Part shown: positions 9,175 to 42,242 of the stretch, in pieces
Layout: each line of letters starts with the position of its first letter
Numbering within the stretch: position 1 is the stretch's first letter
Source: Candidatus Multivoradales bacterium
GTDB taxonomy: Bacteria; Acidobacteriota; Thermoanaerobaculia; Multivoradales; Multivoraceae
DNA: 64,000 nucleotides
Assembly (NCBI GenBank): GCA_965223325.1
Contig: CBDCWI010000002.1
Coordinates: 1,312,001-1,376,000, forward strand
Reading direction: 5' to 3'
Program-made: the position numbers and the translations under genes
Notes under the pieces: model-generated
What the model saw: only the letters and a program-made list of their open reading frames with translations
Database searches by the model: none
Told to the model about the DNA's origin: nothing

Positions 9175-9552
9175 AAGTCGCCGAAGGCGCGCGCATGAAA
9201 GCGCGGCGTGCGAAGCACGAGCGCGTCACCCCCCTCATCCAGACTTGAGCCGGACGAGGGTCCTGAGGGCGGGGCGGGGGATTCACGACCCCCAGGGAGC
9301 AGTCAGGCGGGAAAGGCGCAGGATCCGACTTGGGTTTCCGCGGGGTGCGGGCGGGATCAGGGCTGGCAAGTGTTTGAGCGATGGGTTTTCTGGAGGCTGG
9401 GACCCCCACCAACGCCGAAGACGCCTGGTCACCGACACCCCCCACGCCGAAGCTTCGCGAGTTTTGCCAGCCCCCCGCACGTGCCCCGCGGAAACCCTAG
9501 TCGGATGCGCCGGCCGCCGCTCCCTGGGGGTCGTGAATCCCCCGTCCCGCCC
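9175..9552 (+). repeat. Dispersed repeat copy A: leader motif (9175-9234) plus long imperfect palindrome (9267-9552)
   Basis: GTCGCCGAAGGCGCG...GAAAGCGCG..GTGCGAAGCACGAGCGC. Outer arms of 34 bp with 1 mismatch, plus two inner stems. Confidence 0.9.
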
Positions 9553-9639
9553 GGCGCAGTCCACAACCTCACCCAACCAGCACAAAACAACGCCGTCCCA
9601 GGAACCAACAACCAGGATCAGTAGCCACCAACCACCAAT

Positions 9640-9694
9640 GACCAAAGACCAAAGACCAACGACCAACGACCAACGACCAACCAGAAACCAGAAA
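9640..9694. repeat. Heptamer microsatellite (GACCAA[A/C])n followed by CCAGAAA x2
   Basis: GACCAAA x2 and GACCAAC x4, directly after the SNF2 stop codon. Confidence 0.85.
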
Positions 9695-9695
9695 C

Positions 9696-12600
9696 TCAGG
9701 AAAGAAGCATACGCAGATCGTCCGCGCTCAAGTCCTTCAGTCCTGTTCCTTTGCCTTCCAGGATTGCTTCTGCCAGCTGCTTCTTGGTGCCCTGCAGCTC
9801 GAGCATCTTCTCCTCGACGGTGTCTCGGGCAATCAGCTTGTAGGCGAAGACCGGTTGGGTCTGGCCAATGCGATGGGCGCGATCGATTGCCTGGGCTTCG
9901 ACGGCCGGGTTCCACCACGGGTCGAGCAAGAAGACGTAGCTGGCCGCGGTCAGGTTGAGGCCTACTCCGCCGGCTTTGAGACTGATCAGGAAAAGGTTCG
10001 TGTCAGGGTCGTTCTGGAACCGATCGACGACCGCGGCGCGGTCGCGCGTCGAGCCGTCGAGATAGGCGTAGGTGATCTCGCGCTCGTCGAGGTTCTCGCG
10101 CACGAAACCGAGCAGCTTGGTGAACTGCGAGAACACCAGGACCTTGTGACCCTCGGAGAGGATCTCTTTGACCTGTTCGAGAAGGGTCTCGAGCTTGGCG
10201 CTGCCGGCTTCGCTCCAGCTTTCGTCGACCAGGCCGGGGTGGCAGGCGATCTGACGAAGCCGCAGGAGTGCCTCCAGAACTTGCATCGTTGAACCGCCGA
10301 CGCCCTTCTTCTCGACCTGGTCGAGCAGGCTCTCGGCGTAGGTGACTCGCAGCTGATCGTAGAGCTTCTGTTGCTCGTCGGTCATGGTGCACAGCAGAAC
10401 CTGTTCAGTCTTCTCGGGCAGGTCGGGCAGGACTTCCTGTTTCGTGCGCCTGAGAATGAAGGGGCGTAAGCCACGGGCGACCAGTTCGAGCTCCTTCTGA
10501 CTGGCGTCGCGGCCACCGAGCAGAACCTCGAGTGCCGGCATGCGACCGAGCAGGCCGGGGTTGAGAAACTCGAAGATCGAACCGAGCTCACCGAGGTGGT
10601 TCTCGATCGGCGTACCGGTCAAGGCGAGACGGTGCTCTGCCTGCAGCAGACGGGCAGCCTTGGCGGTTTGCGACTCGGGGTTCTTGATCGCCTGCGCCTC
10701 GTCGAGGATGACGGTGTCGAACTCGACGGTGGCCAGGTGCCCGATGTCGCGGCGCAACGTGCCGTAGGTCGTCACGACGAGATCGAAGTCGGCCAGACGA
10801 TCGCGCAAGCCTTCGCGTGCCGCGCCCAGGTACTCCACCGTTTCGAGGGTTGGCGTGAACCTCTTGGCTTCGTCGATCCAGTTGTAGATCAAGCTGCGGG
10901 GAGCGACGACAAGAATCGGCAGGCCGGTCGTGCGGCTCTTGGTGCGGTACTTCTTGATCAGTGCCAGAGCCTGGACGGTCTTGCCGAGGCCCATGTCATC
11001 AGCCAACACGCCGCCGAGGCTGTACTCGCGCAAGAACTCGAGCCAGCCGAGCCCCATCTCCTGGTAACCGCGCAGCTTGCCCTTGAATCCGCGCGGAGCC
11101 TTCTGCGGATCGATGGCCTCGAACGAGCGGATCTTCTCGCGCAGGGCGGCAAAGGCAGAGTCGACGTCGACCGCCGGCTGCGCCACCAACAGAGCGTCGA
11201 CGAGGCCGGCCTGCGAGGGATGGAAACGCAGGCCGTCTTCGGAGGAGCTCTGGGCGAGCTGTGCCAGCGAATCGTAGGCGTCGACCATGTCGCTAGTGAG
11301 CAGGCCCTCGGAACCGTCCTCGAGGGTGATCGTGCGTTCACCGCGTGAGATCGCCTCCAGGATGCGAGCGAACTCGACTCGGTCGCCGGCAAAGTCGACT
11401 TCGCCGCTGAGCTCGAACCAGTCGAGCCCGCTTTCGACCCGCAACTTGGGCGGGCTCGCCGAGCGATAGGACGTACCGCGCACTTCGACTTCCCAGCCGG
11501 CGGCGAGCAGCGGTTCGGCAACCGTCGCCAGCTCCTCCGGCGGCAGCTCGAGAACGTCTGGATGAGCCGAGGGCTTTAAACCCAGCTCGAGAAGCTGCAC
11601 CAGGTACTCGCGCTCGGCCTCCATCTCGCGACGGATGAAGCGTTTCTTCTCGAAGTCGATCACCGCCGGGCGGGCGTCGCCGGCTGAGACCTCGAGAACG
11701 CCGTAGGCGAACGAAAGGTCGGCCAGCAACTGCGGGTTCATGAACTCGGGAGCATCTTCTGGTTCGAGGACCAGGCGGGGCTGAACGACCGCCTCTTCGC
11801 GCGCCAGCTGGAAGTCTTCCGGCGCCTCGAGGCGAGGCAGCCCCGGCATTTCGAGCAACGTGGTCACCGCCTCCTCCATGTCCCCTTCGGGGAAGACGAT
11901 CTCGTCCTTGCCGGTGAGGAGGTCGATCCATGGGCCATCGCCTGCCGACTTGACCTCGAAGTGACCGATCTCGTCGCCCACAACGACCAGCGCGCGACCC
12001 GAGTCAGCAAGCGTCGCACCGGGGCCGTCGTCGGAGGGTTCGGGGAGCAGCAGCTGCACCTTCGACAACGGAACTTCCTGCTCCTCGCGCTCGAGAATGC
12101 CGCGCAGGCGCATGCGGCCAGCTGCTGCGAACTCGAGATGGAGCGCTAGCGTCCAGGGATCGCCGGTCGCATAGCGAAGCGTTTTGGGATCGCCCAGCCG
12201 CCGCCCATCCCAGAGCCTGAGAGCGTCACGCTGCGCGAGATCCGGGAGTACCGAGTCCCAGAGGCTCGGCGGCAGCTGAATTCGCGGAAAGCCACCCGAG
12301 CGCGCCGCTGCACGCTTCTTCTTGCGATTACCCCGCGCACGCCGCTGGTTCCCCTTGCCGCCCTTGGGTGCATCAGGTGACACCGCCGCAACCACCGTCA
12401 TCGCCGTCTCGTCCGCGCTGTTACCGGACTCGCCGCCAGAGAGGAGCTCTTCGATTTCGGCGAGCTCGAGGTCCTGGCGCCGCAGTTTGCCGGGCTTACC
12501 CGACTGGGTCGGTTTGCGACCGAAGATGTCGAGTGTCAACTGGCCGCCGGCGGCACTGGCCGTTGTGTTCAGGAGCAGATAGATGCTGACGTCAGACTGG

Positions 12601-13361
12601 AGGACGTTGGCCTGCCCGTTCTTGGCCGCCGTCTGCGCCTGGGCCTGAGCATCGAGCAGCTTCTCGGTGTCTTCGCTGATCGACAAGAGCTGTCGACGCC
12701 ATGAAGGACCGCCCGCCGGCCGTTGGCGCCGGTCGTCTGACTTGCGAGAACGACGCTTGCGGCTGCGCGTGCTCTTGGTGTGGGTCGAAACTGCAGCGAG
12801 CTCCGGCCAACGCGAAACACGATCTTTTCTGAGACCAATGCGGCTCTTGCCGGGCGGCTGCGCGATGACCGCGGTCGCGGCACCGTTGGCCTTCTTGCCC
12901 TTCTTGTCTCGGCTCTGACCACGGCGGCCTTCTGGCCCTCCCATGCCCTCGTCACTCTCCGGAAGAGCGGCGCCATTTGCGTTTCTTGACCCGAGACCGC
13001 CGAGGTCGAGCAACGTCGCCCAGATGTGCTTGCACGGCGTCCCGCCGGCGAACCGCTCGCATTCACAGAACACGTGCAAGCGGCGCTCTTCCGCTACCCG
13101 CGACCAGTCGATTCCAACCCCGTAGGTGCTCTTGTTCGAGCCCTTGACCTGCGCCAGAGCGCGATCTCCTATGACTTCGAGAAGCACGCGACCCTGCTTC
13201 TGGTAGCTCTCGCCACGCTTGCGGTCGCCAGGTTGAAAGTGCGACGTACTGCGCTGATGCAGCGGAGCCGAGTCGGATCGCTTGCCGCCACGGCGTTGGC
13301 GTGGTCGACCACGACGTCGACGGGGACGACTCGGGCGTTCCTGGGTCTCTTCTTCGGCCAT
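9696..13361 (-). CDS. SWIM zinc-finger SNF2/Swi2-family helicase
   Basis: CEC...CKH SWIM motif; LADDMGLGKT, ILDEAQAIKN, LTGTPIEN, LVFSQF, ISLKAGGVGLNL, QAIDRAHRIGQ. Confidence 0.96.
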   Translation of the reverse strand: MAEEETQERPSRPRRRRGRPRQRRGGKRSDSAPLHQRSTSHFQPGDRKRGESYQKQGRVLLEVIGDRALAQVKGSNKSTYGVGIDWSRVAEERRLHVFCECERFAGGTPCKHIWATLLDLGGLGSRNANGAALPESDEGMGGPEGRRGQSRDKKGKKANGAATAVIAQPPGKSRIGLRKDRVSRWPELAAVSTHTKSTRSRKRRSRKSDDRRQRPAGGPSWRRQLLSISEDTEKLLDAQAQAQTAAKNGQANVLQSDVSIYLLLNTTASAAGGQLTLDIFGRKPTQSGKPGKLRRQDLELAEIEELLSGGESGNSADETAMTVVAAVSPDAPKGGKGNQRRARGNRKKKRAAARSGGFPRIQLPPSLWDSVLPDLAQRDALRLWDGRRLGDPKTLRYATGDPWTLALHLEFAAAGRMRLRGILEREEQEVPLSKVQLLLPEPSDDGPGATLADSGRALVVVGDEIGHFEVKSAGDGPWIDLLTGKDEIVFPEGDMEEAVTTLLEMPGLPRLEAPEDFQLAREEAVVQPRLVLEPEDAPEFMNPQLLADLSFAYGVLEVSAGDARPAVIDFEKKRFIRREMEAEREYLVQLLELGLKPSAHPDVLELPPEELATVAEPLLAAGWEVEVRGTSYRSASPPKLRVESGLDWFELSGEVDFAGDRVEFARILEAISRGERTITLEDGSEGLLTSDMVDAYDSLAQLAQSSSEDGLRFHPSQAGLVDALLVAQPAVDVDSAFAALREKIRSFEAIDPQKAPRGFKGKLRGYQEMGLGWLEFLREYSLGGVLADDMGLGKTVQALALIKKYRTKSRTTGLPILVVAPRSLIYNWIDEAKRFTPTLETVEYLGAAREGLRDRLADFDLVVTTYGTLRRDIGHLATVEFDTVILDEAQAIKNPESQTAKAARLLQAEHRLALTGTPIENHLGELGSIFEFLNPGLLGRMPALEVLLGGRDASQKELELVARGLRPFILRRTKQEVLPDLPEKTEQVLLCTMTDEQQKLYDQLRVTYAESLLDQVEKKGVGGSTMQVLEALLRLRQIACHPGLVDESWSEAGSAKLETLLEQVKEILSEGHKVLVFSQFTKLLGFVRENLDEREITYAYLDGSTRDRAAVVDRFQNDPDTNLFLISLKAGGVGLNLTAASYVFLLDPWWNPAVEAQAIDRAHRIGQTQPVFAYKLIARDTVEEKMLELQGTKKQLAEAILEGKGTGLKDLSADDLRMLLS

Positions 13362-13801
13362 ACGGAGTGGGCCTACCTTGTGAGGCTCGGTTGAGCAGTG
13401 ATGTCTATGCAGAGGTTTTCGAGAACCGGGCCATCACGAACGATGGCTGGCGTCGTACCGATCTTCCGGGCCTATGGAACGTTGGTTGAGGCCCGGGTGC
13501 TGCGAGTGGAAGCACTAAGAGCGCTGTACCGGCAGAAGCTGCACCGGGGAACACCGCCTCTGGCGGCTGCGCCCTTTTGTGGAGCGTCTCGGGCTTGTCT
13601 CTTGGCTCGGTCGCAATGAGGGACCCTCGCGTTGCTTCTTACGGCTCGGGAGGCGTCCTGCGAGAAAGATGCTACCACCTTTTGAGGGCCGTTGGCATTT
13701 TTTCGTGGCGATCCTTCTAGGACAACCCGCATGGTCCCATTCCTCGAGGCCAGGGACCCAAGCGCCACCCCCCACCCGGCCCCAGTCTCTAGACTGTCGA
13801 G

Positions 13802-14551
13802 ATGGACAAGCCACCGCTGGCCCACGATGCCTATGAACGCCTGGCGGATCGTTACGCCGAACACATCGACACCAAGCCCCACAACGCCTACTACGAGCGG
13901 CCCGCGCTCACCTCCCTCATCCCGCCCGTCGAGGGACGGCTGGTGCTCGACGCCGGTTGTGGAACCGGGGTGTACAGCGAGCTTCTCGCGGCAGGCGGGG
14001 CCACGGTCATCGCCCTCGACGCCAGCGAGCGCATGCTCGAACACGCTCGCCGGCGACTCGCGACCGCCATCGAAGCGGAAGCCGTAGCCCTTGCGCGAGC
14101 TGACCTCAACGAGCGCCTCGACATCGCTGACGCAACGGTTGATCTGGTCGTGGCCGCCCTTTGCGTCGACTACATCGAAGACTGGCACAGGTTGTTCGCC
14201 GAGTTTCGACGGGTCCTCCGGGAGGGCGGGCACCTCGTCTTCTCCACCGGACATCCGGCCTTCGAAGCAGAGTTCTTCGCCACCGATGACTACTTCTCAA
14301 TCGAGAAGGTGGAGTGCACCTGGAGCGGCTTTGGGATCGAGGTCGTCATGCCGAGCTACCGGCGCTCACTCGAAGCTACGCTGATGCCACTTCTCGAGAC
14401 CGGGTTCGAAATCGAGCGCCTGCTCGAACCACGTCCCACGGAAGACTTCCGGGCAGCCGACCCGAAGCGCTTCGAACGTCTCATGCATCGCCCGAGCTTC
14501 CTGTGTATCCGAGCCCGCGCAGGAAGACGTACGGCGGATCAGGAGATTTGA
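13802..14551 (+). CDS. Class I SAM-dependent methyltransferase
   Basis: VLDAGCGTG motif I; RVLREGGHLVFS. Confidence 0.92.
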   Translation: MDKPPLAHDAYERLADRYAEHIDTKPHNAYYERPALTSLIPPVEGRLVLDAGCGTGVYSELLAAGGATVIALDASERMLEHARRRLATAIEAEAVALARADLNERLDIADATVDLVVAALCVDYIEDWHRLFAEFRRVLREGGHLVFSTGHPAFEAEFFATDDYFSIEKVECTWSGFGIEVVMPSYRRSLEATLMPLLETGFEIERLLEPRPTEDFRAADPKRFERLMHRPSFLCIRARAGRRTADQEI

Positions 14552-14671
14552 CAGGGTGCCGGAGCTCGGGTTGAATGGACGCCCCACCCGTCCTGACCGA
14601 AAGCGACCTGGTGCACCCGCGCCCCAGCCGGCGAGGGAGTGGCGCAACCCGCAAGCAACAGGAGACCCACC

Positions 14672-15685
14672 ATGATCGACACCTACCGCATCTACGGCTC
14701 CGAAATGTCGCCGTACTCGGTCAAGGTGCGCTCGTACTTTCGCTACAAGAGCATTCCCCATCAGTGGATCCTGCGCGGCCCCCACAACCAGGACGAGTTC
14801 CAGAAGTACGCCCGCCTGCCGCTCGTCCCGCTGGTGGTGACGCCCGAAGACGAAGGCATCCAGGACTCGACCCCGATCATCGAGCGACTCGAAGAGCGGT
14901 TCGGTGAGCCTTCGATTCACCCCGCCGACCCGACCCTCGCCTTTCTGTCGGCGCTGCTCGAAGAGTTCGGCGACGAATGGGGCAACAAGTGGATGTTCCA
15001 CCTTCGCTGGGCGCGCGAAGTCGACCAGAAGAGCTCAGCGGGTCGCATTGCCGCTGGCATGGCACAAGGCACCGATGAGGCACAGCGCACTCAGATTGCC
15101 GAGCAGATCAGGGAGCGCATGGTGGGTCGCGTCTGGTTCGTAGGCTCGAGCCTGGCCACAGCGCCGCAGATCGAGGAAACCTTCGCCGACGCCATTGCAG
15201 CCCTCGAGCCACACTTCGAGACGCGGCCCTACCTTTTTGGTGACCGCCCTGCATTCGCCGATTTCGGCCTCTGGGCACAGCTCTACTGCGCCTGGACCGA
15301 CCCGACCGGCGGTGCGATGATCGAAGGCCGCGCACCGCAGACGCTGGCCTGGATCCAACGCATGCTGTGGCCAAAGGTGGAAGACAACGGGCCTTCCCAA
15401 GGCGCATTCGAAGACTGGCGAACGCTCGAGCCCACCCTCGCCCCCTTCATCTCGCGCTTCGTGAGCGGTCTGTTCCTCCCCTGGTCGGTCGCCAACGCGC
15501 AGGCTCTCGAGGCTGGTGACGCGCGTTTCACCGTCGAGCTCGAGGGCTCTCCGTTCACCCAGAAGCCGCAGAAGTACCACGCTCGCTCGTTGTCGGCGCT
15601 CTCTAGTCGCTACGAAGCGATCGCCGATAAGAGCACGCTCGAGCCCCTCCTCGATTCGCTCGGAGCCCTCGCGTACCTCGGCTGA
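14672..15685 (+). CDS. Glutathione S-transferase family protein (long type)
   Basis: SD AGGAG; YGSEMSPYSVKVRSYFRYK, QDSTPII, PYLFGDRPAFADFGL. Confidence 0.9.
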   Translation: MIDTYRIYGSEMSPYSVKVRSYFRYKSIPHQWILRGPHNQDEFQKYARLPLVPLVVTPEDEGIQDSTPIIERLEERFGEPSIHPADPTLAFLSALLEEFGDEWGNKWMFHLRWAREVDQKSSAGRIAAGMAQGTDEAQRTQIAEQIRERMVGRVWFVGSSLATAPQIEETFADAIAALEPHFETRPYLFGDRPAFADFGLWAQLYCAWTDPTGGAMIEGRAPQTLAWIQRMLWPKVEDNGPSQGAFEDWRTLEPTLAPFISRFVSGLFLPWSVANAQALEAGDARFTVELEGSPFTQKPQKYHARSLSALSSRYEAIADKSTLEPLLDSLGALAYLG

Positions 15686-15692
15686 GCGCAGC

Positions 15693-16115: not shown

Positions 16116-16155
16116 GCGGTTCCTCGACCTCTCGTGCCTCGCCCTTGCTCCTTGG

Positions 16156-17754: not shown

Positions 17755-17953
17755 GGAATAGACCTCCTTGGAGACGAGCACTGAGGGGCTCATTGGGGGA
17801 CTGCCGGAATGCCCGCCGAGCGGCCCGGCATCGTGCACTCCTGGTAACGCACCCGGGAATCAGATCCCGCCACTCCGCTACAGTACAGGGCCCGCGCCGA
17901 GACCCGAGAACCGTATCGACCGGACGGCTCCCGCGCCGCCCGCAGGAGAACCC

Positions 17954-28551: not shown

Positions 28552-29039
28552 GACCAACCACGCCCCGCCGGCCAGCCCCGAGCTACAGAACCTCATGGCG
28601 GCGCGTGACAACGAAGCCACGAATCCGCGGCGCGCAACGGTCCGCTTGCGCTGCAAGGGTGATGCTAGCGAGGGGTGTAGTAACCACCCCACGCCGACAC
28701 AAGAGTCGACCCAAGCCCAGTAACGCGGGCCCGTCCAGGCCCACGCCCCACAAATCGACCTACCACGCCCCGTCGACCACCACCGAGCTACAAGACCTCA
28801 TGCCGGCCCGTGACAACGAAGCCACGGATCCGCGGCGCGCGACGGGCCGCCGAAGGCCGAGGGCGGAGCTGCAGGGCGGACGCCGCGCGCATACGACACG
28901 CGCCACGGTCCGCTTGCGCCGCAAGAGTGACGACTAGCGAGGGGTGTGGTAACCACCTGACGCCGACTCCAGAGGCGAACCAGACCCAGTAGCGCGGGCC
29001 ACTCCGGGCCGGCGCCCCAACACCGACCAACCACGCCCC
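28552..29039. repeat. Degenerate tandem repeat: units of 205 bp and 268 bp plus the start of a third
   Basis: Units begin GACC(A/T)ACCACGCCCC at 28552, 28757 and 29025. Shared blocks CCGAGCTACA, GTGACAACGAAGCCACG, ACGGTCCGCTTGCG and CTAGCGAGGGGTGT. Confidence 0.88.
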
Positions 29040-30525: not shown

Positions 30526-30607
30526 CGCCGCCGCCGAGCAGTCGGGCCGCACCGGCTACACTGCGCCCACCGATTCCAGACATTTCAACAAGAGAGCGGA
30601 GTTCCCC

Positions 30608-32626: not shown

Positions 32627-32662
32627 GCAGCGGTTTTCCGAAGAAACGGTTCTCCGAAGACG

Positions 32663-32962
32663 GTGCCACTTTTCTCGCGCAAGCCGCTGATCCGCGTTCA
32701 TCTGGTGATCAAGGGCCGCATTGGTGATGGCTGGCTCGATGTCGACCGGCACTTGAAGCTGGCGAAGGGTTCGACGCTGTCGGACCTGCTGGATGAGGCG
32801 GACCGCCAGTCGATTCCTCTTCGCCACGCGATTGAGCAGAGCCCTCATCTTGCGGAAACGTTGATGTGGAACGGGGAACGGCGCGTAGTCGCCGAGAACC
32901 TGAACCGCCGTCTCGACGACGGCGATCAAATCTACCTACTAAGCCCAGTAGCCGGCGGGTAG
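32663..32962 (+). CDS. MoaD/ThiS-family sulfur carrier
   Basis: Ubiquitin-like fold ending LDDGDQIYLLSPVAGG; directly after AOR. Confidence 0.88.
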   Translation: MPLFSRKPLIRVHLVIKGRIGDGWLDVDRHLKLAKGSTLSDLLDEADRQSIPLRHAIEQSPHLAETLMWNGERRVVAENLNRRLDDGDQIYLLSPVAGG

Positions 32963-33034
32963 GTTCGACCTCCGTCCTTGCCGCTTCTGGTTGTTCTGTG
33001 GCGGGTTGTTGTTGTTGCGGTGAGGTATGGCGCC

Positions 33035-33202
33035 GCGGGTGGGGCCGGTGGACGGCGGTCCAGGGCACGGCGGCGCTTCTTCTGACTGCCTTGGGTGGCG
33101 CCGCCTGCGCTCGCCGGCCGCATTTCGGTTGCCGCCTGCGGATGGGGTGCTAGTTCGGCCGGCGAGAGCACCCTGGACCGCCGCCCACGCGGCCCCACCC
33201 GC
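33035..33202 (-). repeat. Dispersed repeat copy B: long imperfect palindrome
   Basis: GCGGGTGGGGCCGGTGGACGGCGGTCCAGGG ... CCCTGGACCGCCGCCCACGCGGCCCCACCCGC, with inner stem CTCGCCGGCCG/CGGCCGGCGAG. Confidence 0.85.
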
Positions 33203-33252
33203 TCTCGATGTACTACGACCGGAAGAACGCGGCATCTAGACGGACGGGGTCT

Positions 33253-33713
33253 CTCTTGGGGCGGGTGATCGTGGTGAACGAACGGACCCTGCCCGGAAGG
33301 AACTCCTGGACTGGATCGGATTCAGCACGGTGCCAGGCGAGTGTGACGACACTCAGAGTGGCGCAGCGAGTCTTGCCCACCTCGCCGATGCTCGAAGAGG
33401 TGAGTCCCTCGACGATGCCGTTCATCGGCATCCGCAGTTGCTCTTGAGGCGGGTGATCGTGGTGAACGAACGGGCCCTGCCCGGAAGGAACTCCTGGACT
33501 GGATCGGATTCAGCACGGTGCCAGGCGAGTGTGACGACACTCAGAGTGGCGCAGCGAGTCTTGCCCACCTCGCCGATGCTCGAAGAGGTGAGTCCTTCGA
33601 CGATGCCGTTCATCGGCATCCGCAGTTGCTCTTGGGGCGGGTGATCGTGGTTGAACGAACGGGCCCTGCCCGAAAGGAACTGCTGGACTGGATCGGATTC
33701 GGCACGGTGCCAG
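33253..33713. repeat. 188-bp tandem repeat, about 2.45 near-identical copies
   Basis: Units start CTCTTG(G/A)GGCGGGTGATCGTGG at 33253, 33441 and 33629; few substitutions and one extra T in copy 3. Confidence 0.96.
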
Positions 33714-33799
33714 AGTGGCGACACGTCGAGCGGGCTTGAGGCAGACCTACAGGGTAACAAGGCACCCAGGCAAGGAAGACTCTGCGCCAGGCGCTGTAG

Positions 33800-33910
33800 G
33801 CGCGATGTGCGAAGCACGAGCGTGCACCCCCCTCACCCAGCTCGAGATCGAGCCTGACTCCGAGAGGGCGGAGGGTGGAGCGCCCGGCGACCTGGCACAC
33901 CCTCACAATC
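33800..33910 (+). repeat. Dispersed repeat copy: leader motif plus internally deleted hairpin
   Basis: GCGCGATGTGCGAAGCACGAGCG at 33800. CCCGGCGACCTGGCACACCCTCACAATC matches the reverse complement of about 40177-40205. Confidence 0.8.
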
Positions 33911-33959
33911 CTGAGCCCGCCTTCGCCCATCGCTACTGCTACGACGGAGCAATCAGCAA

Positions 33960-35342
33960 TCAGGAAGAGGCAGGTTCCCAGCCCGGCTCGTACTCCCGAC
34001 TCCAGAAGGCATTGGCTTCGTCATCGCCTTCGATACGCCCCGTTGAAGGATTGATCTCGAGCGTTCTTCCTACGGACCAGGCGATGTTGCCCAGGTGGCC
34101 TAGTTGGACGGTCTTGTGGGCTTCTTCGATCGGGATGTTCGACTTTTCTTTTCCGCGAACGGCTTCTAAGAAGTTCTGGACGTGGACGCCGTCGAGACTG
34201 GCGTCGGGGCTGGCGAGGTTGACGGCGTCGACCTGGCCGGGGATGACGCTGCCGTGGCTCATGACGACGGTGCGTTCTTTGTCGTTGGCTCTTACCTCGA
34301 AGGCGTCGCCTACCTGCAGCATCGAACCCGTTTCACCGTGAAAGAGAATCCCGCGCGACCAGCCGTGCACCAGGTGGTTGTTGCAGCTGCGGCCTTCCCA
34401 GTGGATGGCAGCGCCTTCGGGGAACTCGATGCTGAGCATCATGGTGTCGGGGAACTGCCAGTCGTCTTCTGCGTGCCAGCGGCCGCCAGTGGCGACAACC
34501 CTTTCGGGGTTGCCGAGCTGCATGCCCCAGCGAGCGACGTCGAGCTCGTGAGTCCCATTGTTGAGCGCTTCGCCGGTTCCCCAGCGGGTGAACCAGTGCC
34601 AGTTGTAGGGATGGACGTTGTCGCGGTAGTCGGTGCGCGGTGCGGGGCCCTGGAAGAGGTCCCAGTTGAGCTCAGGGGGAACGGCGACCTTCTTTCCCTT
34701 GCCGATCGGAGCACGGTCGTTGGCGTACCAGGTTCGCGCCAGGTAGACGCGACCGATGATGCCTTCGTGCAGTGCCGTCATAGCCCTGGTGACGCCCGGC
34801 CAGGAGCGGCGCTGGTTTCCCATGTGGATCACGCGACCGGTGCGCGCGGCGGCCTGGATCAGGAGCTCGCCTTCGTGCGGGTTGTGGGAACAGGGCTTCT
34901 CGAGGTAGCTGTCTTTGCCAGCGTCGGCGGCCAGGATGGCGGCGGGGGCGTGCCAGTGGTCCGGTGAGGCGATGACCAGCACGTCGACGTCGGAGCGCTC
35001 GACGACTTTTCGGATGTCCGCCTCGGCTACCGGGATTTTGTCCTGAACCTTGGCCAGGGTCTCGAGACACGGGCCGAAGTAGCGTTCGTCGACGTCGCAA
35101 AGCACAGTCACTTCGGTGTTCTTCTGCATCGCGAACTCACGCGCCATGCCACGACCGCGGCTACGCACTCCCATGACGGCAACCCTGACGTGGTCGGAAG
35201 GGCTCTCCTGGACGAGCGCAGCGAGCGGCCGTGAGATCACAGCGGCGGCACTGCCAACGGCCAGGTCGCGACCGAATTGGCGACGGGTTCGGCCGGGAGC
35301 CAGGGTGACTTCAGAGGACGCTTCGGGGGTTGGCTTCTTCAT
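33960..35342 (-). CDS. Tat-exported Gfo/Idh/MocA oxidoreductase
   Basis: TRRQF Tat motif; VAVMGVRSRG, ASPDHWH, YLEKP, GNQRRS, NNGTHELD. Confidence 0.93.
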   Translation of the reverse strand: MKKPTPEASSEVTLAPGRTRRQFGRDLAVGSAAAVISRPLAALVQESPSDHVRVAVMGVRSRGRGMAREFAMQKNTEVTVLCDVDERYFGPCLETLAKVQDKIPVAEADIRKVVERSDVDVLVIASPDHWHAPAAILAADAGKDSYLEKPCSHNPHEGELLIQAAARTGRVIHMGNQRRSWPGVTRAMTALHEGIIGRVYLARTWYANDRAPIGKGKKVAVPPELNWDLFQGPAPRTDYRDNVHPYNWHWFTRWGTGEALNNGTHELDVARWGMQLGNPERVVATGGRWHAEDDWQFPDTMMLSIEFPEGAAIHWEGRSCNNHLVHGWSRGILFHGETGSMLQVGDAFEVRANDKERTVVMSHGSVIPGQVDAVNLASPDASLDGVHVQNFLEAVRGKEKSNIPIEEAHKTVQLGHLGNIAWSVGRTLEINPSTGRIEGDDEANAFWSREYEPGWEPASS

Positions 35343-35388
35343 CGGTGGGGGGCCCTTCTCGAGAGGTACTCAGCGAACGTTCAGGCAT

Positions 35389-36804
35389 TCAGCTGTTGGC
35401 TGCGAGGTCGCGCAGCTTGATGTTTCGAAACGAGACTTCGTTACCGTGGTCCTGGAGCAACAGGTGGCCGCTCTCCCAGTCACCGAAGCCTTCCCAGTTA
35501 CGGTACTTGCTGATCGCAACGAGCCGAGCGAAGGCCTCGGAGCCGAGAACATAGGAGAGCACCAACTGGTGGTTGAGCCAATGTTCGACCGAGCGGTCGG
35601 GTCGCACCACCAGGCGGGCATGGTTCCATTCGCCGGGCGGCTTGACGAAACGAGGTTCTTTCTCGGCCGCGATCAGGTCGTAGAGCGAAGAAAGGGTGCG
35701 GTTGCCATCGCGCCCGAGCTTGGCGTCGGGATGGCGTTGGTCGTCGAGCAACTGGTACTCGACGCCGATTGCCGAGCCTCTGGTATTGCCGTACTGCTCA
35801 GTGACGAAGTACTTGATGCCGCTGTTGGCCCCTTCGGAGAGCCGGAAGTCGAGCTGCAGCTCGAACGCCGAGAACTCTTCCACCGTCACAATGTCGCCGC
35901 CGTGCGCCGCTTCGCCACCGCCCGACTCGAGCACCGTCAAGAGGCCATCTTCGATTCGCCAGCCCTGGGCGGGGAAAGACTCCATGTGCGCTCCGCGCCA
36001 TCCGGTGGTGGTCTCTCCGTCCCAGAGCAGGCGCCAGCCAAGTGCCTGCTCGTGTGGGTCGAGGGTGTTGGTCATCGAGTTGGCAACGTACGGGAACCCG
36101 TCGCTCGAAAGCCGGTCGACGCCGGCCAGGCCGAGCTCCTGGAGGCGCAGGTTGCGCCAGCGGACTGTCCGCCCCGCCAGGTCATCGCTCACCGAATGAA
36201 CTTGAAGGGCGATGAAGCCGCGCGGTGTCATGTCGTCGACCAGGTAACTCGCCGGTGTGCCGTTGAGCCAGGTCCGGATGACCGGGCCTCTCGCCTCGAC
36301 GACCACCTGGTTCCAGGCACCCTGTTGGAAGGCCTGCTTCGCTTCGGGGTTGAGTGACAACGGAAAGAGCCAGCCGCGGCGCGCTTCGTCATAGATGCCG
36401 GCGGTCCAGGCGCGCTCTGAGGGGTCGATCTCCACTTGGTAGCCGTGAACCCGGCCGTCGTGGTAGTCGTCGCGGCTTTCACTGCGAACCTGTACCCCCG
36501 AGTTGATCTCGGGGTCGACATTGAACTCGAACTCGAAGCGAAAGTCGCCATAGGTCGCGTCCGAGGCCAAAAACGAGTTCGGGGTTCCAGCGACCGTCGT
36601 GCCAATGACCTCGCCACCTTCGACTCGGTAGAGCGCTTCCCCGCCGCGCTGCGTCCAGCCATCCTGTGAGTCACCGGCGAAGAACTCCACCCACGGGGCA
36701 GTATCCTCTGTGCGACCAGCGGTTGGTTCTTCGGCGACCGAGTCTGAACAGGCCCAGGAAACCAGCCCGGCGGCGACTAGCAAGAGAAGCGATCGATGAA
36801 TCAC
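35389..36804 (-). CDS. Tandem DUF1080 (3-keto-disaccharide hydrolase-like) lipoprotein
   Basis: Lipobox-like SWAC; two domains with NSGVQ...GYQVEID...GFIALQVH and ANSGIKY...EYQLLD...LLQDHG. Confidence 0.92.
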   Translation of the reverse strand: MIHRSLLLLVAAGLVSWACSDSVAEEPTAGRTEDTAPWVEFFAGDSQDGWTQRGGEALYRVEGGEVIGTTVAGTPNSFLASDATYGDFRFEFEFNVDPEINSGVQVRSESRDDYHDGRVHGYQVEIDPSERAWTAGIYDEARRGWLFPLSLNPEAKQAFQQGAWNQVVVEARGPVIRTWLNGTPASYLVDDMTPRGFIALQVHSVSDDLAGRTVRWRNLRLQELGLAGVDRLSSDGFPYVANSMTNTLDPHEQALGWRLLWDGETTTGWRGAHMESFPAQGWRIEDGLLTVLESGGGEAAHGGDIVTVEEFSAFELQLDFRLSEGANSGIKYFVTEQYGNTRGSAIGVEYQLLDDQRHPDAKLGRDGNRTLSSLYDLIAAEKEPRFVKPPGEWNHARLVVRPDRSVEHWLNHQLVLSYVLGSEAFARLVAISKYRNWEGFGDWESGHLLLQDHGNEVSFRNIKLRDLAANS

Positions 36805-38072
36805 GGAGCCTCCAGATGGCTATCGGGCCGCAAGCTGCCGGTGACGGCGTTGTCCCATTGCGACTGCCAGTACACGAGACCGGCGCCGCGCACTGCGTCG
36901 ATTCCCATCCGCACCGCTAGAGCCGAGCGCGCACCTGCGCGCGCGTTGGAAGAAACCTCGGCGCCCTCGGTGATCGAGCGATGAAAAGCTGCGAGCGCAT
37001 AGTGACTACCACCCCAGCTTCGGCGCACTGAAGCTTCGATCACCTCGCCGGCAGAGCCACTGGCACCGGCGACGGTTCGTGACGCACCGGAGACACCATC
37101 GATGGCCTGCCCCGACTGGGCGGCCTCTTCCCTCGGGTTCAGCGGTTCACGAAAAAGCACAGCGTTCTCGGTTCCGAGAACGATCGTGCCGCGACTACCG
37201 CGCAGTTCAATGCGATAGCCGGCATGGGCATTCGCCGTCAGGCAGGTGGCGGTGACCTTGCGACTCGGATAGTCATAGACGCAGTGGGTGTTGTCGAGGG
37301 TTTCACGGCCGTCTTTCCAGTAATCGATACCTCCGGAGCCGACGACGCGTGTCGGCCGCTCGTCGAACAGCCAGTGCACATAGTCGAGCTGATGAGAGGT
37401 GAGCTCGGCAAGCAAGCCGCCCGAGAACTCTTCGTACATACGCCAGTTGATCGCCCGCTCGTACTTGGGCTCGGGAACCGGTCGGCGCCAGTCGCCATTC
37501 CTGTTCCACTCGAGATCGACCTGGGTGACCTCTCCCAACCAGCCTTCGCGCACCAGCTCGGCAACCCGCAGATAGACCGGGTGGTAGCGGTACTGGTAGC
37601 CCACCTGAACGACGCGATCGGACCCCTCTACCCAGCGCACGACGTCGAGTGCCTCCTGGGCATGCAGGGTCATGGTCTTTTCGCAGTAGAGGTGCTTGCC
37701 CGCATCGAGGGCCTCGAGAGCCATCTGATGATGCATCGAGAGAGGAGTCGCCAAGAGAATCGCATCGACCTCAGGGTCGTCATAGAGCCGTTCCGCCTCG
37801 TCGTAGGTGGAAACGTCTGAGAAGCCAACCTTCGCCGCCGTTTCAGCCGCCGCGGCGAGGCGAAAGGGCAGCACGTCACAGAGCGCTGTGACCTCGAGAC
37901 CCGGCACCGCCCCCAGGACCGGGATCAGACCGCCACCGCGGGCACCCGTTCCGAGAACGCCGACTCGCACCGTCTCGGCTTCTGCGCGGGCACGTACGGG
38001 CAAGAGGGAGCCTGCCGCGCTGGCAAGCGAACCCAGAAGGAGCGTCCGTCGGTCTAGATTGGTTGAGAGCAT
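36801..38072 (-). CDS. Tat-exported Gfo/Idh/MocA oxidoreductase
   Basis: LDRRTLL Tat motif; GVLGTGARG, YCEKTM, NWRMYEEFSGGLLAELTSHQLD; overlaps the next gene by GTGA. Confidence 0.92.
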   Translation of the reverse strand: MLSTNLDRRTLLLGSLASAAGSLLPVRARAEAETVRVGVLGTGARGGGLIPVLGAVPGLEVTALCDVLPFRLAAAAETAAKVGFSDVSTYDEAERLYDDPEVDAILLATPLSMHHQMALEALDAGKHLYCEKTMTLHAQEALDVVRWVEGSDRVVQVGYQYRYHPVYLRVAELVREGWLGEVTQVDLEWNRNGDWRRPVPEPKYERAINWRMYEEFSGGLLAELTSHQLDYVHWLFDERPTRVVGSGGIDYWKDGRETLDNTHCVYDYPSRKVTATCLTANAHAGYRIELRGSRGTIVLGTENAVLFREPLNPREEAAQSGQAIDGVSGASRTVAGASGSAGEVIEASVRRSWGGSHYALAAFHRSITEGAEVSSNARAGARSALAVRMGIDAVRGAGLVYWQSQWDNAVTGSLRPDSHLEAP

Positions 38073-38201
38073 GCAGTGCCACCAGCCTACACTGGCCGGC
38101 ATGCACCCTTCCCAGCTGCCGACTGCACTGGGATGTAGGATGCTCACCGTCACTCCCCCAGCTCCGACTGCCTAGGGACGAATCCGAAAGGAAGGCCAAG
38201 A

Positions 38202-40130
38202 ATGGTGAACTACCGCCAGATCTCTCAAGAAGGACGCAGGCGGAGCGGGAGGGCCCTATCGCCCGCTCGCGAGATCATTCGGATCGCGCTCCTTTGTGGC
38301 CTGGCCTTCCTCGCCGGCTGCGCCAGCGACGAGGCCGAAGAGCCCAGCGGCGAAGCTACCAGCGCGGCCCGCGCCGCGACGGCCCCCAACCCATTACGCA
38401 ACGCCTACTTCGGCGACCTCCACGTCCACACCAAGCACTCGTTCGACGCCTATCTCTTCAGCGTGCGCGAGAATCCCGACGCCGCCTACCGCTACGCCAA
38501 GGGCGAAGCGATCGGCCACCCGAGCGGTTTCGACATCCAGCTCGAGAGTGGGCCGCTCGACTTCCAGGCAGTCACCGATCACGCGATGTACCTGGGCGTT
38601 ATGCCGGCCATGGACGACCCCGAGCACTCTTTCTATGATTTACCGCTCGCCAAGACCCTGCGAGACGCTGGAGCCGGCGGTTTCGCCCGCGCCCTGCAGG
38701 CAATGGGGAGTGGCGAGCTCGCCGAAATCGACGCCACCGAAGTCAAGAGGTCAGCTTGGGCGGACATCAAAAGAGCCGCCGAAGAACACAACGACCCAGG
38801 CACTTTCACGACCTTCATCGGCTACGAGTACACCACCAGCACCGCCGAGAGCGGGAACCTGCATCGCAACGTGATCTTCGCCGGTTCGAACGCCCCCGAC
38901 ATGCCGTTTGCACGCACCGACTCGGAGAACCCCGAGGATCTCTGGGACTGGCTCGATGCCCAGCGTGCAGCAGGCATGGATGCGCTCGCCATTCCCCACA
39001 ACTCGAACGGTTCGAATGGCGCCATGTTCAGCGGCAAGAGCTTCGAAAGCCGGGCCCTCGACGCCTCTTACGCCGAGCAGCGAATGCGCAACGAGCCCCT
39101 GGTCGAGATCACCCAGGTCAAGGGCACTTCTGAGACCCACCCGATGCTGAGTCCCAACGACGAGTGGGCCGACTTCGAGATCTTCCCCTACCGCATCGCC
39201 ACAACGCTCCATAGCGAAGAACGCGGGAGCTACGTGCGCGAGGCTCTGGGCACCGGTCTGGCGCTCGAGGCCGAAGAGGGTTGGAACCCGTTCCGCTTTG
39301 GCTTCATTGGCTCGACCGACACCCACAACGCCGGTGGCACCCCCGAAGAGGACAACTACGTGAGCAAGGTCGGCGCCGCCGACGGTACCGCCCAGCTCCG
39401 TGGAGCGGTTCCCCTCGATGAGCCCACCGCCGATGGCTACGCCTACAACAACCAGCCTGATGACACCTTCATCCAGTTCGGTGCTTCGGGCCTGGCTGGC
39501 GTCTGGGCGGAAGAAAACACCCGCGCGTCGCTCTTTAGCGCCATGCAGCGCAAAGAGACCTTCGCGACCTCCGGTCCGCGCATCAAAGTGCGGTTTTTCG
39601 CCGGCTACGGCTGGAGCGAAGATCTCGCCGCCGATGCCGACATGATCGAGAAGGCCTACGACACCGGTGTGACGATGGGAAGCGACCTGACCGGCGCGGG
39701 CGACGCAGCACCGCACTTCATCGCCTGGGCCATGCGCGACGCCCAGAGCGCCCCGCTCCAGCGCCTACAGATCGTCAAGGTCTGGGTCGACAGCGCCGGC
39801 GCTTCACAAGAGCAGGTGTTCGACGCCGCCTGTGCCGACGGCCTCTCAGTCGATCCCGCAACCCACCGTTGCCCCGACAACGGAGCCACGGTCGACCTCT
39901 CCGATTGTTCGATCTCACAGGGACTCGGGGCCGCCGAACTCAAGACCCTGTGGACCGATCCCACCTTCGACCCCACCCAGCGCGCGCTGTACTACGTGCG
40001 GGTGCTCGAGAACCCGACCTGCCGCTGGTCCACCTGGGATGCCATTCGCGCCGACGTGGAGCCCCGCGATGAAGTGCCGGCTACGATTCAGGAACGCGCC
40101 TGGTCGTCGCCGATCTGGTACGTGCCTTAG
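38202..40130 (+). CDS. DUF3604 domain lipoprotein (PHP-like metallo-hydrolase)
   Basis: LAGC lipobox; YFGDLHVHT.HSFDA, NLHRNVIF, IPHNSNGSNG, GSTDTH, QERAWSSPIW. Confidence 0.93.
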   Translation: MVNYRQISQEGRRRSGRALSPAREIIRIALLCGLAFLAGCASDEAEEPSGEATSAARAATAPNPLRNAYFGDLHVHTKHSFDAYLFSVRENPDAAYRYAKGEAIGHPSGFDIQLESGPLDFQAVTDHAMYLGVMPAMDDPEHSFYDLPLAKTLRDAGAGGFARALQAMGSGELAEIDATEVKRSAWADIKRAAEEHNDPGTFTTFIGYEYTTSTAESGNLHRNVIFAGSNAPDMPFARTDSENPEDLWDWLDAQRAAGMDALAIPHNSNGSNGAMFSGKSFESRALDASYAEQRMRNEPLVEITQVKGTSETHPMLSPNDEWADFEIFPYRIATTLHSEERGSYVREALGTGLALEAEEGWNPFRFGFIGSTDTHNAGGTPEEDNYVSKVGAADGTAQLRGAVPLDEPTADGYAYNNQPDDTFIQFGASGLAGVWAEENTRASLFSAMQRKETFATSGPRIKVRFFAGYGWSEDLAADADMIEKAYDTGVTMGSDLTGAGDAAPHFIAWAMRDAQSAPLQRLQIVKVWVDSAGASQEQVFDAACADGLSVDPATHRCPDNGATVDLSDCSISQGLGAAELKTLWTDPTFDPTQRALYYVRVLENPTCRWSTWDAIRADVEPRDEVPATIQERAWSSPIWYVP

Positions 40131-40180
40131 CTTCGTTCGAGAGCGAGGTGACGGGGTCTGCGGACGCGGTGCGCCCGATT

Positions 40181-40416
40181 GAGAGGGTGTGCCAGGGCGC
40201 CGGGTCGGATCGGCGAGCAGGCGCCTCCCGCGCCGGGTCTCCTGCGGGGCTGTTTGCGGTTGGGTGATTCCGATGCTTCCGGAACGCTGTGCCGACCTCG
40301 GTCGGCGGCTGACCGCTCCTGGGCGCCTGCTCACCGACCCCACCCTCTCGATGGTTCACCTCGTCACTCATTGACGGGAGGTAAGGGTGCGCTCGTGCTT
40401 CGCACATCGCGCTTTC
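40181..40416 (-). repeat. Dispersed repeat copy C: leader motif (40385-40416) plus hairpin (40181-40349)
   Basis: Minus-strand GAAAGCGCGATGTGCGAAGCACGAGCGCACCC; arms TCGGCGAGCAGGCGCC / GGCGCCTGCTCACCGA. Confidence 0.88.
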
Positions 40417-41779
40417 AGGGGCGCCCTTCTCGCCCTAGCCTCGCCTTTACGATCTCTTTATCGTTACGGGCGATGATGTGCCCGTTGGCGTAGGCAGGGT
40501 GTGACCAGTTGACCTGGGCGTCTTGCCAGCGGCGGGGGCCGTAGCCGGCGCTGGAGGTTGGTTCGATCAACTTGGTGCGATCGATCTCGCGGTAGCCCTC
40601 GCGGGTTAGGCTGGCGAGGATGAGGTCGCCGGTGTCGTTGTTGACCAGCCACTGGTCTCCGAGCTGCACCATGAAGGCTGAGCCCCAGCGACCCTGCCGG
40701 GTCATCTTATCGCTGGACCAGAGGCGTTCGCCGGTCTCGAGGTCCAGGGCTCGCAGTTCGCCGTAGCTTCCGACGCCATAGATGGTGTCGTCGGTGAGAA
40801 CGGGGGTTGTGATCAACGAGTGCAGGCCCCTGGTCTCGTCGGGCATCTCGCTCTTGCCGCGAATCTTCCACACCACCCGAGCGGCCGGCTTCTCCTGGTC
40901 GAGCTCGAGAAGCAGCGAGCCGTAGTAGAACTGGGTGAAGAAGAGATGGTTGCCACGGTGGACTGGTGTGGCGACGGTCATGCCCATGCCGACGTCCCAC
41001 TCGACTTCCCAGAGGACCTCGCCAGTGGTCGGGGCGAGAGCACTCACCGCCTTCGGGTGCCAGATGATCAGCTGCTCGCGGCTCGCGGCCTCGACGACCA
41101 TTGGCTGGCCGTAGCCCATCTCCCAGTTCGAGGAAAGTGCACGCCAGACCTCATTGCCGGTCGCCTTGTCGTAGGCAATGACCTTGCCATCGGGTTCGGC
41201 CCCGGTGATCGCAATCAGGAGTTCGCCATCAACGAGCGGCGAGCTCGAGGTCCCCCAGATCGGGATCGTGCTGTCGTACTCGGCCACGAAATCGTGCTGC
41301 CAAAGAACGGTTCCGTCCGCGACCGACAGCGCCAGCAAATGCCCGACGGCGCCGACCACGAAAACCCGCTCGCCGTCAACGGTCGGCGTAGCTCTGGGGC
41401 CGGTGGCATAAGAGGCCTGAATCGCCGCATAGCTGACCGGCCATTCATGTGTCCACAGCACCTCGCCGGTCTCCTCGGAGAGCGCCATCAGACGCTCCGT
41501 CCCCTCCGCCCGCTTCGAAGAGTCGTCGCGGGCGTAGTCGAGAACGAATACCCGCCCATCTGCCACCGCCGGCCCAGCGAAACCGCTCCGAACCGGAGCC
41601 CGCCAGACGACCTCGAGCCCATCCTCGGGAAACGACTCGAGCACCCCGATCTCACGAATCACCCCGTCTCGCGCCGCACCCCGCCACTGCGGCCAGTCAT
41701 CCGCCAGAAGGGCCGACCCGGCAACCACAAAAACGAAAAGGAGAACGAAACCAAGGAGCGGCCGATCTAGTCTTCTCAT
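40415..41779 (-). CDS. PQQ-binding-like beta-propeller protein
   Basis: Signal peptide; DDWPQWRG..RDG; repeated TGEVLW blades; WSHPAYANG. Confidence 0.92.
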   Translation of the reverse strand: MRRLDRPLLGFVLLFVFVVAGSALLADDWPQWRGAARDGVIREIGVLESFPEDGLEVVWRAPVRSGFAGPAVADGRVFVLDYARDDSSKRAEGTERLMALSEETGEVLWTHEWPVSYAAIQASYATGPRATPTVDGERVFVVGAVGHLLALSVADGTVLWQHDFVAEYDSTIPIWGTSSSPLVDGELLIAITGAEPDGKVIAYDKATGNEVWRALSSNWEMGYGQPMVVEAASREQLIIWHPKAVSALAPTTGEVLWEVEWDVGMGMTVATPVHRGNHLFFTQFYYGSLLLELDQEKPAARVVWKIRGKSEMPDETRGLHSLITTPVLTDDTIYGVGSYGELRALDLETGERLWSSDKMTRQGRWGSAFMVQLGDQWLVNNDTGDLILASLTREGYREIDRTKLIEPTSSAGYGPRRWQDAQVNWSHPAYANGHIIARNDKEIVKARLGREGRP

Positions 41780-41867
41780 CGATCAAGCATACCGAGGACG
41801 CGAGAGACCACGAATCGGGACCAACGACCAGAAAGCACGAGCACAACCCCCAGGCCTCGAGTCAAGA

Positions 41868-42242
41868 GCACCAGTGCGAAACGTAAGTCGCCGAAGGCGC
41901 GCACACGAAAGTGCGATGTGCGAAGCACGAGCGCACCCCTGCAGGCCCAACAAGGCCTCGACAGGTGTCAAGTCGAAGGGCACCAGTGCAAAACGTAGGT
42001 CGCCGAAGGCGCGCACACGAAAGCGCGATGTGCGAAGCACGAGCGCACCCCCGCCCCAGCAAAGCCTGACACGGTGTCAGGTCGAAAGGGTGGGGGCGCA
42101 GGACGTGCGCCAGGGAGCGGTCAGCCGCCAACCATCAGCGCCAATCGTTCTCAACACTCAAACACTTCCACCAACCCGCACCACGCCCCAACCAAGGCCC
42201 GGCGCGGAAGGCGCACGTCCTGCGTCTCCACCCGGCCCTTTC
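41868..42242 (+). repeat. Dispersed repeat copy D: leader duplicated with a 112-bp period (41868-41939, 41980-42051) plus hairpin (42084-42242)
   Basis: GCACCAGTGC.AAACGTA.GTCGCCGAAGGCGCGCACACGAAAG.GCGATGTGCGAAGCACGAGCGCACCCC x2; arms GGGTGGGGGCGCAGGACGTGCGCC / GGCGCACGTCCTGCGTCTCCACCC. Confidence 0.92.

Follow-up and report, generated by a model that had tools for sequence, protein, structure and literature searches.

Bacterial intergenic repeats are usually treated as short hairpins of the repetitive extragenic palindromic (REP) type or as young MITEs (miniature inverted-repeat transposable elements). REPINs, as described in excerpts of PMC3337134, carry conserved end frames around a variable, always paired middle, and are thought to fold as single-stranded DNA or RNA; the abstracts of PMC3116915 and of the RAREFAN preprint supply further background on REPs and REPINs as dispersed intergenic hairpins. 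Four long intergenic hairpins, A to D, occur in a 64,000-nt stretch (the window) of the genome of a Candidatus Multivoradales bacterium (6.69 Mb, 64% G+C, in two contigs, C1 and C2; the window is C2:1312001-1376000). An initial reading of the window's letters (the original prediction) likened them to REPINs. They are members of one superfamily, modular, non-coding and strand-specifically folded, whose elements, in contrast to the usual picture, are large, old and compensated. The best reading, at a probability of roughly 0.45, is a dispersing family of transcription-polar structured RNA modules.

Several other systems offer partial precedents. ERIC/IRU, Correia, RUP and BOX elements are intergenic structures of 100-300 nt that fold in transcripts and can affect transcript ends; their copies are recent and similar, with terminal inverted repeats and target duplications. 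In integron attC sites one strand keeps its fold although the sequence varies; every site lies just behind a gene, to which the folded strand is antisense, and in chromosomal integron arrays the folded strand is kept on the leading-strand template. Sibling small-RNA families and Rho-dependent terminators provide paralogous copies with compensatory change, and a structured body followed by an unstructured C-rich stretch for Rho.

The new feature here is the modular architecture of the unit: a leader, a rod, and a C/A-rich tail that points towards the 3' end of a convergent gene. The family comprises three related body types: A, a rod of about 300 nt; B, a three-way junction of about 170 nt; and C/D, of about 150 nt. 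All four palindromes lie where they were originally placed, and the arms of A, B, C and D each pair with their own reverse complement as described. The common frame runs from CGAGAG or CGAAAG through GGG(T/C)GGGG and a variable core to CCAGG(G); A, C and D continue with GAGC(A/G)GTCAG, the CATCGAGAG flank is common to B and C, and the block CCCGGCGCGG(G/A)AGGCGC is present in both C and D. The further claim, that the cores are unrelated in every copy, fails within subfamilies, where cores are held in common (for example A3, A6 and A8). Moreover, the elements reach well past the palindromes, with the leader upstream and the tail downstream. The family is uncatalogued. An Rfam 15 search of the window returned only a tRNA at gathering score and no family for the hairpins, and at E<=1 no family matched A6, B3/B9 or D2/D4. 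The core of the leader unit, searched as a text string, was found in no paper, and a literature search on Acidobacteria, intergenic repeats and structured RNA gave nothing relevant among the matches listed.

How many copies are there? BLAST of the four window regions against their own genome gave 161 aligned pieces. Profile searches identified 10 full-length copies of type A (plus four weak opposite-strand shadows), seven full and four partial copies of type C/D, and 28 matches to type B, of which 12 are full length at at least 118 bits. R1, a covariance model of B built from 11 copies, finds 21 places in the genome plus seven opposite-strand shadows. The census used for placement consists of the 40 profile matches of at least 40 bits (A, 10; C/D, 8; B, 22). 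The original prediction had looked for tens to hundreds of copies as support; about 40 matches reach only the low end of that range. They are partly non-independent: A4/A5 and B3/B9 are tandem pairs, B5/B6 is an inverted pair, and A2 sits in a 6.9-kb segmental duplicate of the A6 locus. Identity between copies is 70-90%, the only near-identical pair being this segmental duplicate, and rod lengths range across the family from 140 to 290 nt.

In A, the outer arms (9267-9300 and 9519-9552; 34 nt) are 97% complementary and the inner arms (9323-9355 and 9474-9506; 33 nt) 88% complementary. On the element strand, RNA folding z-scores are -12.5 for A, -8.3 for B, -3.8 for C and -9.0 for D, measured against 200 dinucleotide shuffles, none of which folded as well for any of the four. 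Alignment of the A copies supports 84 pairs in one long rod, with 96.4% of cells paired (84.9 +/- 0.7 in shuffled alignments) and double changes in 40 of the 84 pairs (15.4 +/- 2.6 shuffled; none of 500 shuffles as high). When the 3' partners were slid by 1-3 columns as a control, pairing was 40-48%, with 47.5% the highest, and double-change pairs numbered 6-12. For B, 51 pairs form the three-way junction: 97.3% of cells are paired, versus 90.2% shuffled, and 14 of the 51 pairs show double changes, versus 6.7 (0/500 shuffles as high); by a further measure, further pair types, 8/500 shuffles reached the observed value. In C/D, 16 of 31 pairs are compensatory.

Departures from Watson-Crick pairing reveal the strand. 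Among 1618 paired cells in the three alignments, the non-Watson-Crick cells comprise 90 G-T, 10 A-C and 43 others; the cells are not independent, but the asymmetry is plain nonetheless. Therefore one strand is selected, and it is the one that reads leader, rod, tail. The best R1 copy likewise scores 194 bits on the element strand and 52 bits on the opposite strand. Outer-stem mismatches had been described as G-T wobbles, on the plus strand for A and D and on the minus strand for B and C; this is correct apart from a single G-G in C and a bulged C in B. The original proposal of selection acting on a single-stranded fold is supported by covariation above the controls, by the excess of G-T over A-C and by the lack of an Rfam match. 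The conserved parts are internal loops, not ends alone: the bulges and internal loops AGCAGTCAG, GAAA, GGA and ATCA are invariant across copies of A, as is the junction across those of B.

Could pairing persist without function? The elements might be quasi-palindromic DNA whose arms are kept complementary by template-switch mutation, with the orientation bias reflecting survival of long palindromes. The original prediction had likewise raised the copying of one arm onto the other, and a single case fits: a matched C/G insertion in both arms of A2 relative to A6, a duplicate 98.5% identical to it. Copies that have lost their interior (mini1, at window 33790-33912, and C2:3886285-3886420) and the replication-strand bias described below also speak for it. 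However, arm copying would erase the bulges, loops and three-way junction that are invariant across copies and, for B, across genera; and neither the 90-to-10 ratio of G-T to A-C nor the polarity with respect to genes is explained. This account appears distinctly improbable. A coding element is ruled out by the compensatory pattern and by the absence of a conserved frame in the B 3' module.

In contrast to REPINs, each unit begins with a leader. The leader of A, C and D consists of one to five tandem copies (period 46-158 nt) of a leader unit (LDR), each with three small hairpins; genome-wide there are 35 units in about 17 loci (<=4 mismatches to a 23-nt core). The third LDR hairpin covaries between copies: GTGC/GCAC, GAGCC/GGCTC and GTGCC/GGCAC. 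In A10, D4 and D5 the tandem unit takes in the 5' arm of the rod as well. Such duplications of LDR plus 5' arm precede the complete A10 (C1:1057972-1058444), D5 (C1:359848-360049) and D4 (C2:3918800-3918973), and thus several 5' arms could compete for one 3' arm. The end motif of A, C and D is CCCGGCG(A/C)CCTGGCACACCCTCACAATCC. B has a different leader, a conserved block of roughly 90 nt ending in CCGTCCGTCTAGATGCCGC, present in up to four tandem copies at one locus. Among B copies, homology sets in some 65-95 nt ahead of the closing stem and continues for 100-300 nt past it, which means that the stem is not terminal.

In all types the rod is followed by a C/A-rich stretch. The genome contains 18 tracts of at least 85% C+A over 60 nt, and 13 of these are element tails. 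Short tandem repeats lie inside the tails (in the window, ACCAACG x7.9 and AAGCAGATCAAGA x4.8). In B the C/A tract, 40-149 nt long, is followed by a conserved small hairpin (AAGCGGCAAGGACGGAGATCGAGCCGTCC) and then by a further conserved stretch. A structured RNA head with its own leader, an A/C-rich simple-sequence tail containing microsatellite-like repeats and positions beside stop codons recall short interspersed elements (SINEs), retroposons mobilized as RNA, which here might borrow the reverse transcriptase of a 14-copy group II intron-like element. Such an origin would be very improbable indeed: the B tract is internal, with a conserved hairpin module after it; no target duplications were seen; and the copies are old.

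Placement relative to genes is almost fixed. On our own crude codon-model gene call, the tail-side gene is convergent in 32 of the 40 census matches (binomial p about 2e-4, with matches not all independent) and in 27 of 31 curated copies; Pfam confirms 19 of 22 tail-side genes, plus the window neighbours. These genes are functionally unrelated (SNF2 helicase, M20 peptidase, DUF3604, ThiS-like, rpoD, proS, smc, rsgA, polB, surE and others). Leader-side genes are equally varied, and are co-directional in 25/40. The 31 curated copies occupy 15 convergent, 14 co-directional and 2 divergent gaps, where the genome has 592, 1901 and 607, respectively; convergent gaps hold more elements than their number would suggest, and divergent gaps hold few. 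Within co-directional gaps, the tail faces the end of the upstream gene 12 times and the start of the downstream gene twice. A 5' untranslated region or riboswitch function is ruled out by the tail side facing a gene 3' end in 32/40.

Such placement invites a regulatory explanation, in which each element is a cis-antisense regulator with its own promoter, a sensor-like rod, and conditional Rho termination that controls antisense silencing of the convergent neighbour. The strict convergent placement, with the tail up to or into the neighbour's stop codon, is as expected; so are conserved internal loops, which could bind a factor, and a tail of rut-like composition. Nevertheless, the neighbours have no common functional theme and include essential genes, a scan of three window regions found no promoter, and selection against outward transcription into gene starts would explain the polarity equally well. 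Control of this kind is quite unlikely.

Replication gives a second axis of orientation. On a map that has dnaA at the cumulative GC-skew minimum (C2:3.506 Mb), and in which the only 16S gene runs with the inferred fork, the elements read on lagging-strand sequence in 10/10 matches for A, 7/8 for C/D and 9/22 for B (13 leading). Gene polarity of B without replication bias points to transcription, not replication. As for the bias of A, C and D, long palindromes may survive best if it is the better-folding strand that serves as leading-strand template; alternatively, the bias may be a property of LDR arrays, which B is without.

These observations favour structured RNA modules with transcriptional polarity, because B is polar to genes without replication bias, because the elements carry RNA-like motifs (GAA and GAAA loops, and a tandem G-A loop in the LDR), and because of the C/A-rich stretch. 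The genome contains both rho and rnc. A mechanism can be sketched. The unit would be transcribed from leader through rod to tail. The closing helix of about 24-32 bp drifts in sequence yet stays paired, and encloses the conserved bulges and internal loops. The rod would serve as a stable protein-binding body, possibly cleavable by RNase III, and the tail as a rut-like stretch for Rho loading, such that the transcript would be ended before going far into the convergent neighbour. Duplication or insertion would have carried the units to the 3' flanks of unrelated housekeeping genes. We infer from sequence that RNA, not single-stranded DNA, is the molecule that folds, that the element is transcribed and that Rho acts in the tail; the mode of spread is likewise a proposal.

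A number of points weigh against this reading. Folding energies of individual copies give the element strand no advantage, and G-T tolerance is also compatible with single-stranded DNA. A scan of three window regions for sigma-70-like promoters gave no sites, and the leader-side gene is divergent in 15/40 census matches. With 15-24% G, the window tails are not extremely poor in that base. That A, C and D lie on lagging-strand sequence in 17/18 matches (14/15 independent loci by our count) is not predicted by an RNA-only model. In B2 and B7 the neighbouring gene's stop codon falls inside the B 3' module, and deletion derivatives occur; both look like the behaviour of selfish or mobile DNA. Finally, the distribution is narrow and patchy: of 150 other genomes from across the phylum, one contained B (with stricter filters), and BLAST detected A plus LDR in none of 30 relatives.

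Several of these points suit a non-autonomous mobile element that moves as single-stranded DNA, like REPINs or PATEs, with the hairpin recognized by a Y1 (HUH) protein; covariation would arise since only paired copies replicate. The genome has 29 Y1_Tnp matches in several multi-copy families of 95-100% identity, one of them in the window; most are insertion sequence (IS)-like, 310-350 aa, with arrays at both contig ends. Copies at or inside gene ends, deletion derivatives, tandem partial copies, the 17/18 strand bias and the absence of elements beside two orthologous genes in the same-genus genome all agree with such movement, and REPIN spacers, in the excerpts of PMC3337134, are also variable yet paired. 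Against it, the distance from each of the 29 Y1_Tnp genes to the nearest of the 40 element matches exceeds 12.5 kb, the copies are 70-90% alike apart from the one segmental duplicate, and B is strictly gene-polar, yet without replication bias. Nor were terminal inverted repeats or target duplications seen, in a search that was not exhaustive; plasmids gave no match for A or B, and viral contigs none for LDR. In IS608-type elements the folded strand is the opposite of the leading-strand template that is folded here. Overall, movement as single-stranded DNA is unlikely.

The original assignment to REPINs with a RAYT partner fails; the first interpretation is supported in part. An inverted repeat pair able to form a hairpin in single-stranded nucleic acid is present, and the elements resemble REPINs, as far as the excerpts of PMC3337134 describe them, in being dispersed intergenic hairpins with conserved ends and a variable paired middle. 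They differ in size (3-6 times larger than the 89-bp REPIN of that source), in their conserved internal loops, leader array and C/A-rich tail, and in number: a REPIN population would be a large near-identical set of copies of about 90 bp, in the hundreds, not about 40 diverged ones. On both sides of the single-copy RAYT-like gene (C1:1305966-1306784) lie arrays of another repeat, the 11-nt CCCGGGC, and gene and repeat together are probably the genome's real REP/RAYT system. This 11-nt repeat also occurs in the window as a tandem of CCCGGGCATCT x5.7 at 1145-1207, with the same repeat at C1:1305886-1305983, C1:1306811-1306908 and more than 50 other sites.

The IS-like unit in the window (61322-62694, 1373 bp) carries a 310-aa Y1_Tnp-like open reading frame (ORF) at 61563-62495 on the minus strand, with an NF047646 score of 33.5 bits where the cut-off is 80. 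The unit is inserted into the 3' end of the gene at 60522-61343, and a 99.8% copy lies at C2:201861-203233. Its ends are unlike A-D, which speaks against the elements being PATEs derived from IS200/IS605. MITE features were also sought: no flanking duplication was noticed, and exact element ends could not be fixed. Fourteen equal-scoring RVT_1 matches (e.g., C1:64188-64880), each in a 539-aa open frame, presumably represent a multi-copy group II intron-like element; none of the 14 copies adjoins an A-D element, the nearest being about 7 kb away, and a link was rejected. A guide-target role for the variable cores was also discarded: the 21-26-nt A cores match only their own arms (<=1 mismatch), and for B and D the cores, 15-16 nt long, have only scattered, chance-like matches.

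The remaining precedents also fall short. The elements share with ERIC/IRU, Correia, RUP and BOX the format of intergenic structures of 100-300 nt. However, they have a closing stem that lies inside a longer unit, and their old, compensated copies are nearly fixed in orientation to neighbours. As in attC arrays, the folded strand of A, C and D is on the leading-strand template; however, cassette arrays are absent and the orientation varies (A and D on the plus strand, B and C on the minus, several genes apart), no R'/R'' core sites were seen, and the elements are much larger with conserved interiors. An integron array was rejected on the dispersal of elements over both contigs and strands; no search for intI was made. 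Sibling small RNAs provide the likeness of compensated paralogous copies with a structured body followed by a C-rich unstructured stretch, although strict tail-to-gene-end placement and replication bias are not features of such families. A Rho-dependent terminator would call for an unstructured, C-rich and G-poor stretch of about 60-80 nt behind the RNA body; the concentration of extreme C/A tracts in element tails and the presence of rho speak for one, the G content of the window tails, given above, against.

How far does the family extend? Elements resembling B, which share its junction core but have other stems and mostly no C/A tails, are present in 4 of 30 relatives: the only genome of the same genus has 2 weak ones, another genus has 6 and 1, and another family 11. 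Orthologue flanks of DUF3604, M20, rpoD and SpoVR genes in three relatives (G001, G010 and G007) are free of elements; synteny is broken there, as it is between G015 and G010, and no clean insertion boundary emerged. The A-type core pattern was absent from metagenome contigs.

The LDR has a wider range. Its exact 21-nt core is found at 30 loci in other genomes. Seventeen are in one Flexilinea metagenome-assembled genome, at the tip of a different hairpin repeat that lies behind co-directional genes; one is in a palindrome of Granulicella paludicola; the other 12 look coding or due to chance. The core also occurs at 22 metagenome loci, and at six of these, from soil, tandem LDR units are followed by a different covarying rod. 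Thus the leader-rod architecture, polarity included, extends beyond this genome. Two of the six look-alike rods abut the 3' end of a convergent transfer-messenger RNA (tmRNA) gene and one abuts a convergent ORF stop; Rfam recognized nothing on them except the tmRNA ends. The core thus stands at the tips of unrelated long hairpin repeats in other phyla (loci L031-L057, Flexilinea; L047, Granulicella paludicola; and L083/L100/L101), and the LDR behaves like a small, self-folding module able to move from one repeat family to another.

Two properties set the family apart: invariant loops that resemble protein sites, together with a leader hairpin module common to unrelated repeats in other phyla; and an orientation that is almost fixed to neighbouring gene ends and, for two of the three types, to replication also. 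If transcribed, the unit would act as a portable means of shaping transcript ends or antisense transcription, and would do so at dozens of housekeeping genes; if moving as DNA, it would be a hairpin element without a recognizable transposase partner. Either way, about 40 loci and the soil metagenome look-alikes form a concrete set for study.

Table 1. Elements of the hairpin family in the window, with their parts and adjoining genes (window positions).
Feature	Position	Strand	Description
A leader (LDR)	9178..9236	+	Three small hairpins, the last GCGCGGCGTGCGAAGCACGAGCG; repeat families D3/D6
A rod	9267..9552	+	286-nt long hairpin (10 full-length copies in the family); internal loops: AGCAGTCAG bulge, GAAA, GGA, ATCA
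A rod tip	within 9267..9552	+	Unpaired, C/A-rich
A tail	9553..9695	+	A 42%, C 39%, G 15%, T 4%
A tail tandem	9627-9681	+	7-nt ACCAACG x7.9
A tail end			Meets stop codon of convergent SNF2-helicase gene 9696-13361 (-)
B body	33035..33207	-	173-nt three-way junction; R1 173.7 bits
B arms			Outer stem; GCTCTCG..CGAGAGC arm; GGCGGCGC..GCGCCGCC arm
B upstream region	33208..33713	-	Conserved motif CCGTCCGTCTAGATGCCGC at 33229-33247
B upstream tandem	33253-33713	-	188 nt x2.4; repeats the stretch upstream of the CCGTCCGTCTAGATGCCGC motif (ACCACGATCACCCGCCCCAAGAG), motif itself excluded
B tail and 3' module	32963..33034	-	C/A-rich 48 nt, then AAGCGGCAAGGACGGAGGTCGAACC
B tail side			Adjoins stop of convergent ThiS-family gene 32663-32962 (+), behind AOR
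mini1, decayed A-type copy	33790..33912	+	LDR, first 17 nt of 5' arm, 3' end motif CCCGGCGACCTGGCACACCCTCACAATCC
mini1 losses			Interior and 3' arm deleted, by comparison with A4/A5
Element C	40131..40440	-	LDR 40385-40440; CATCGAGAG and rod about 40194-40349; end motif 40177-40204
C tail			Short, up to stop of convergent DUF3604 gene 38202-40130 (+)
C LDR start			Just past stop of PQQ/BamB-like gene 40415-41779 (-)
D leader	41864..42054	+	Two tandem LDR units, 41864-41942 and 41976-42054; spacing 112, 94% identity
D rod	42088..42235	+	24-bp closing stem, GGGAGCGGTCAGCC motif, C/A-rich interior (G 8%)
D tail	42236..42366	+	13-nt tandem AAGCAGATCAAGA x4.8 at 42304-42366
D tail end			Runs into 3' end of convergent M20-peptidase gene 42350-43603 (-)

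Metagenome contigs over 32900-42400 (four runs) break at the repeats and provide no informative joint across an element. The 6.9-kb duplicate (C1:53500-60400 versus C2:144-6776; loci L004 and L001; 98.5-99% identity) contains a tRNA, a phage-type integrase, surE and an A element, and its two copies differ in LDR number, 5 versus 2. Adjoining the B3/B9 pair is a ZMP/ZTP riboswitch (53.2 bits; L009:2852-2943, equivalent to C2:268851-268942), which precedes a serine hydroxymethyltransferase gene. Another repeat family occupies window positions 28552-29019; its units, spaced 205-269 nt, contain CGAAGCCACGAATCCGCGGCGCGC and GGTCCGCTTGCGCYGCAAGGGTGA blocks, and tandem copies related to it that include C/A-rich parts are found at C1:422.4-422.9 kb and C2:4069-4070.4 kb.

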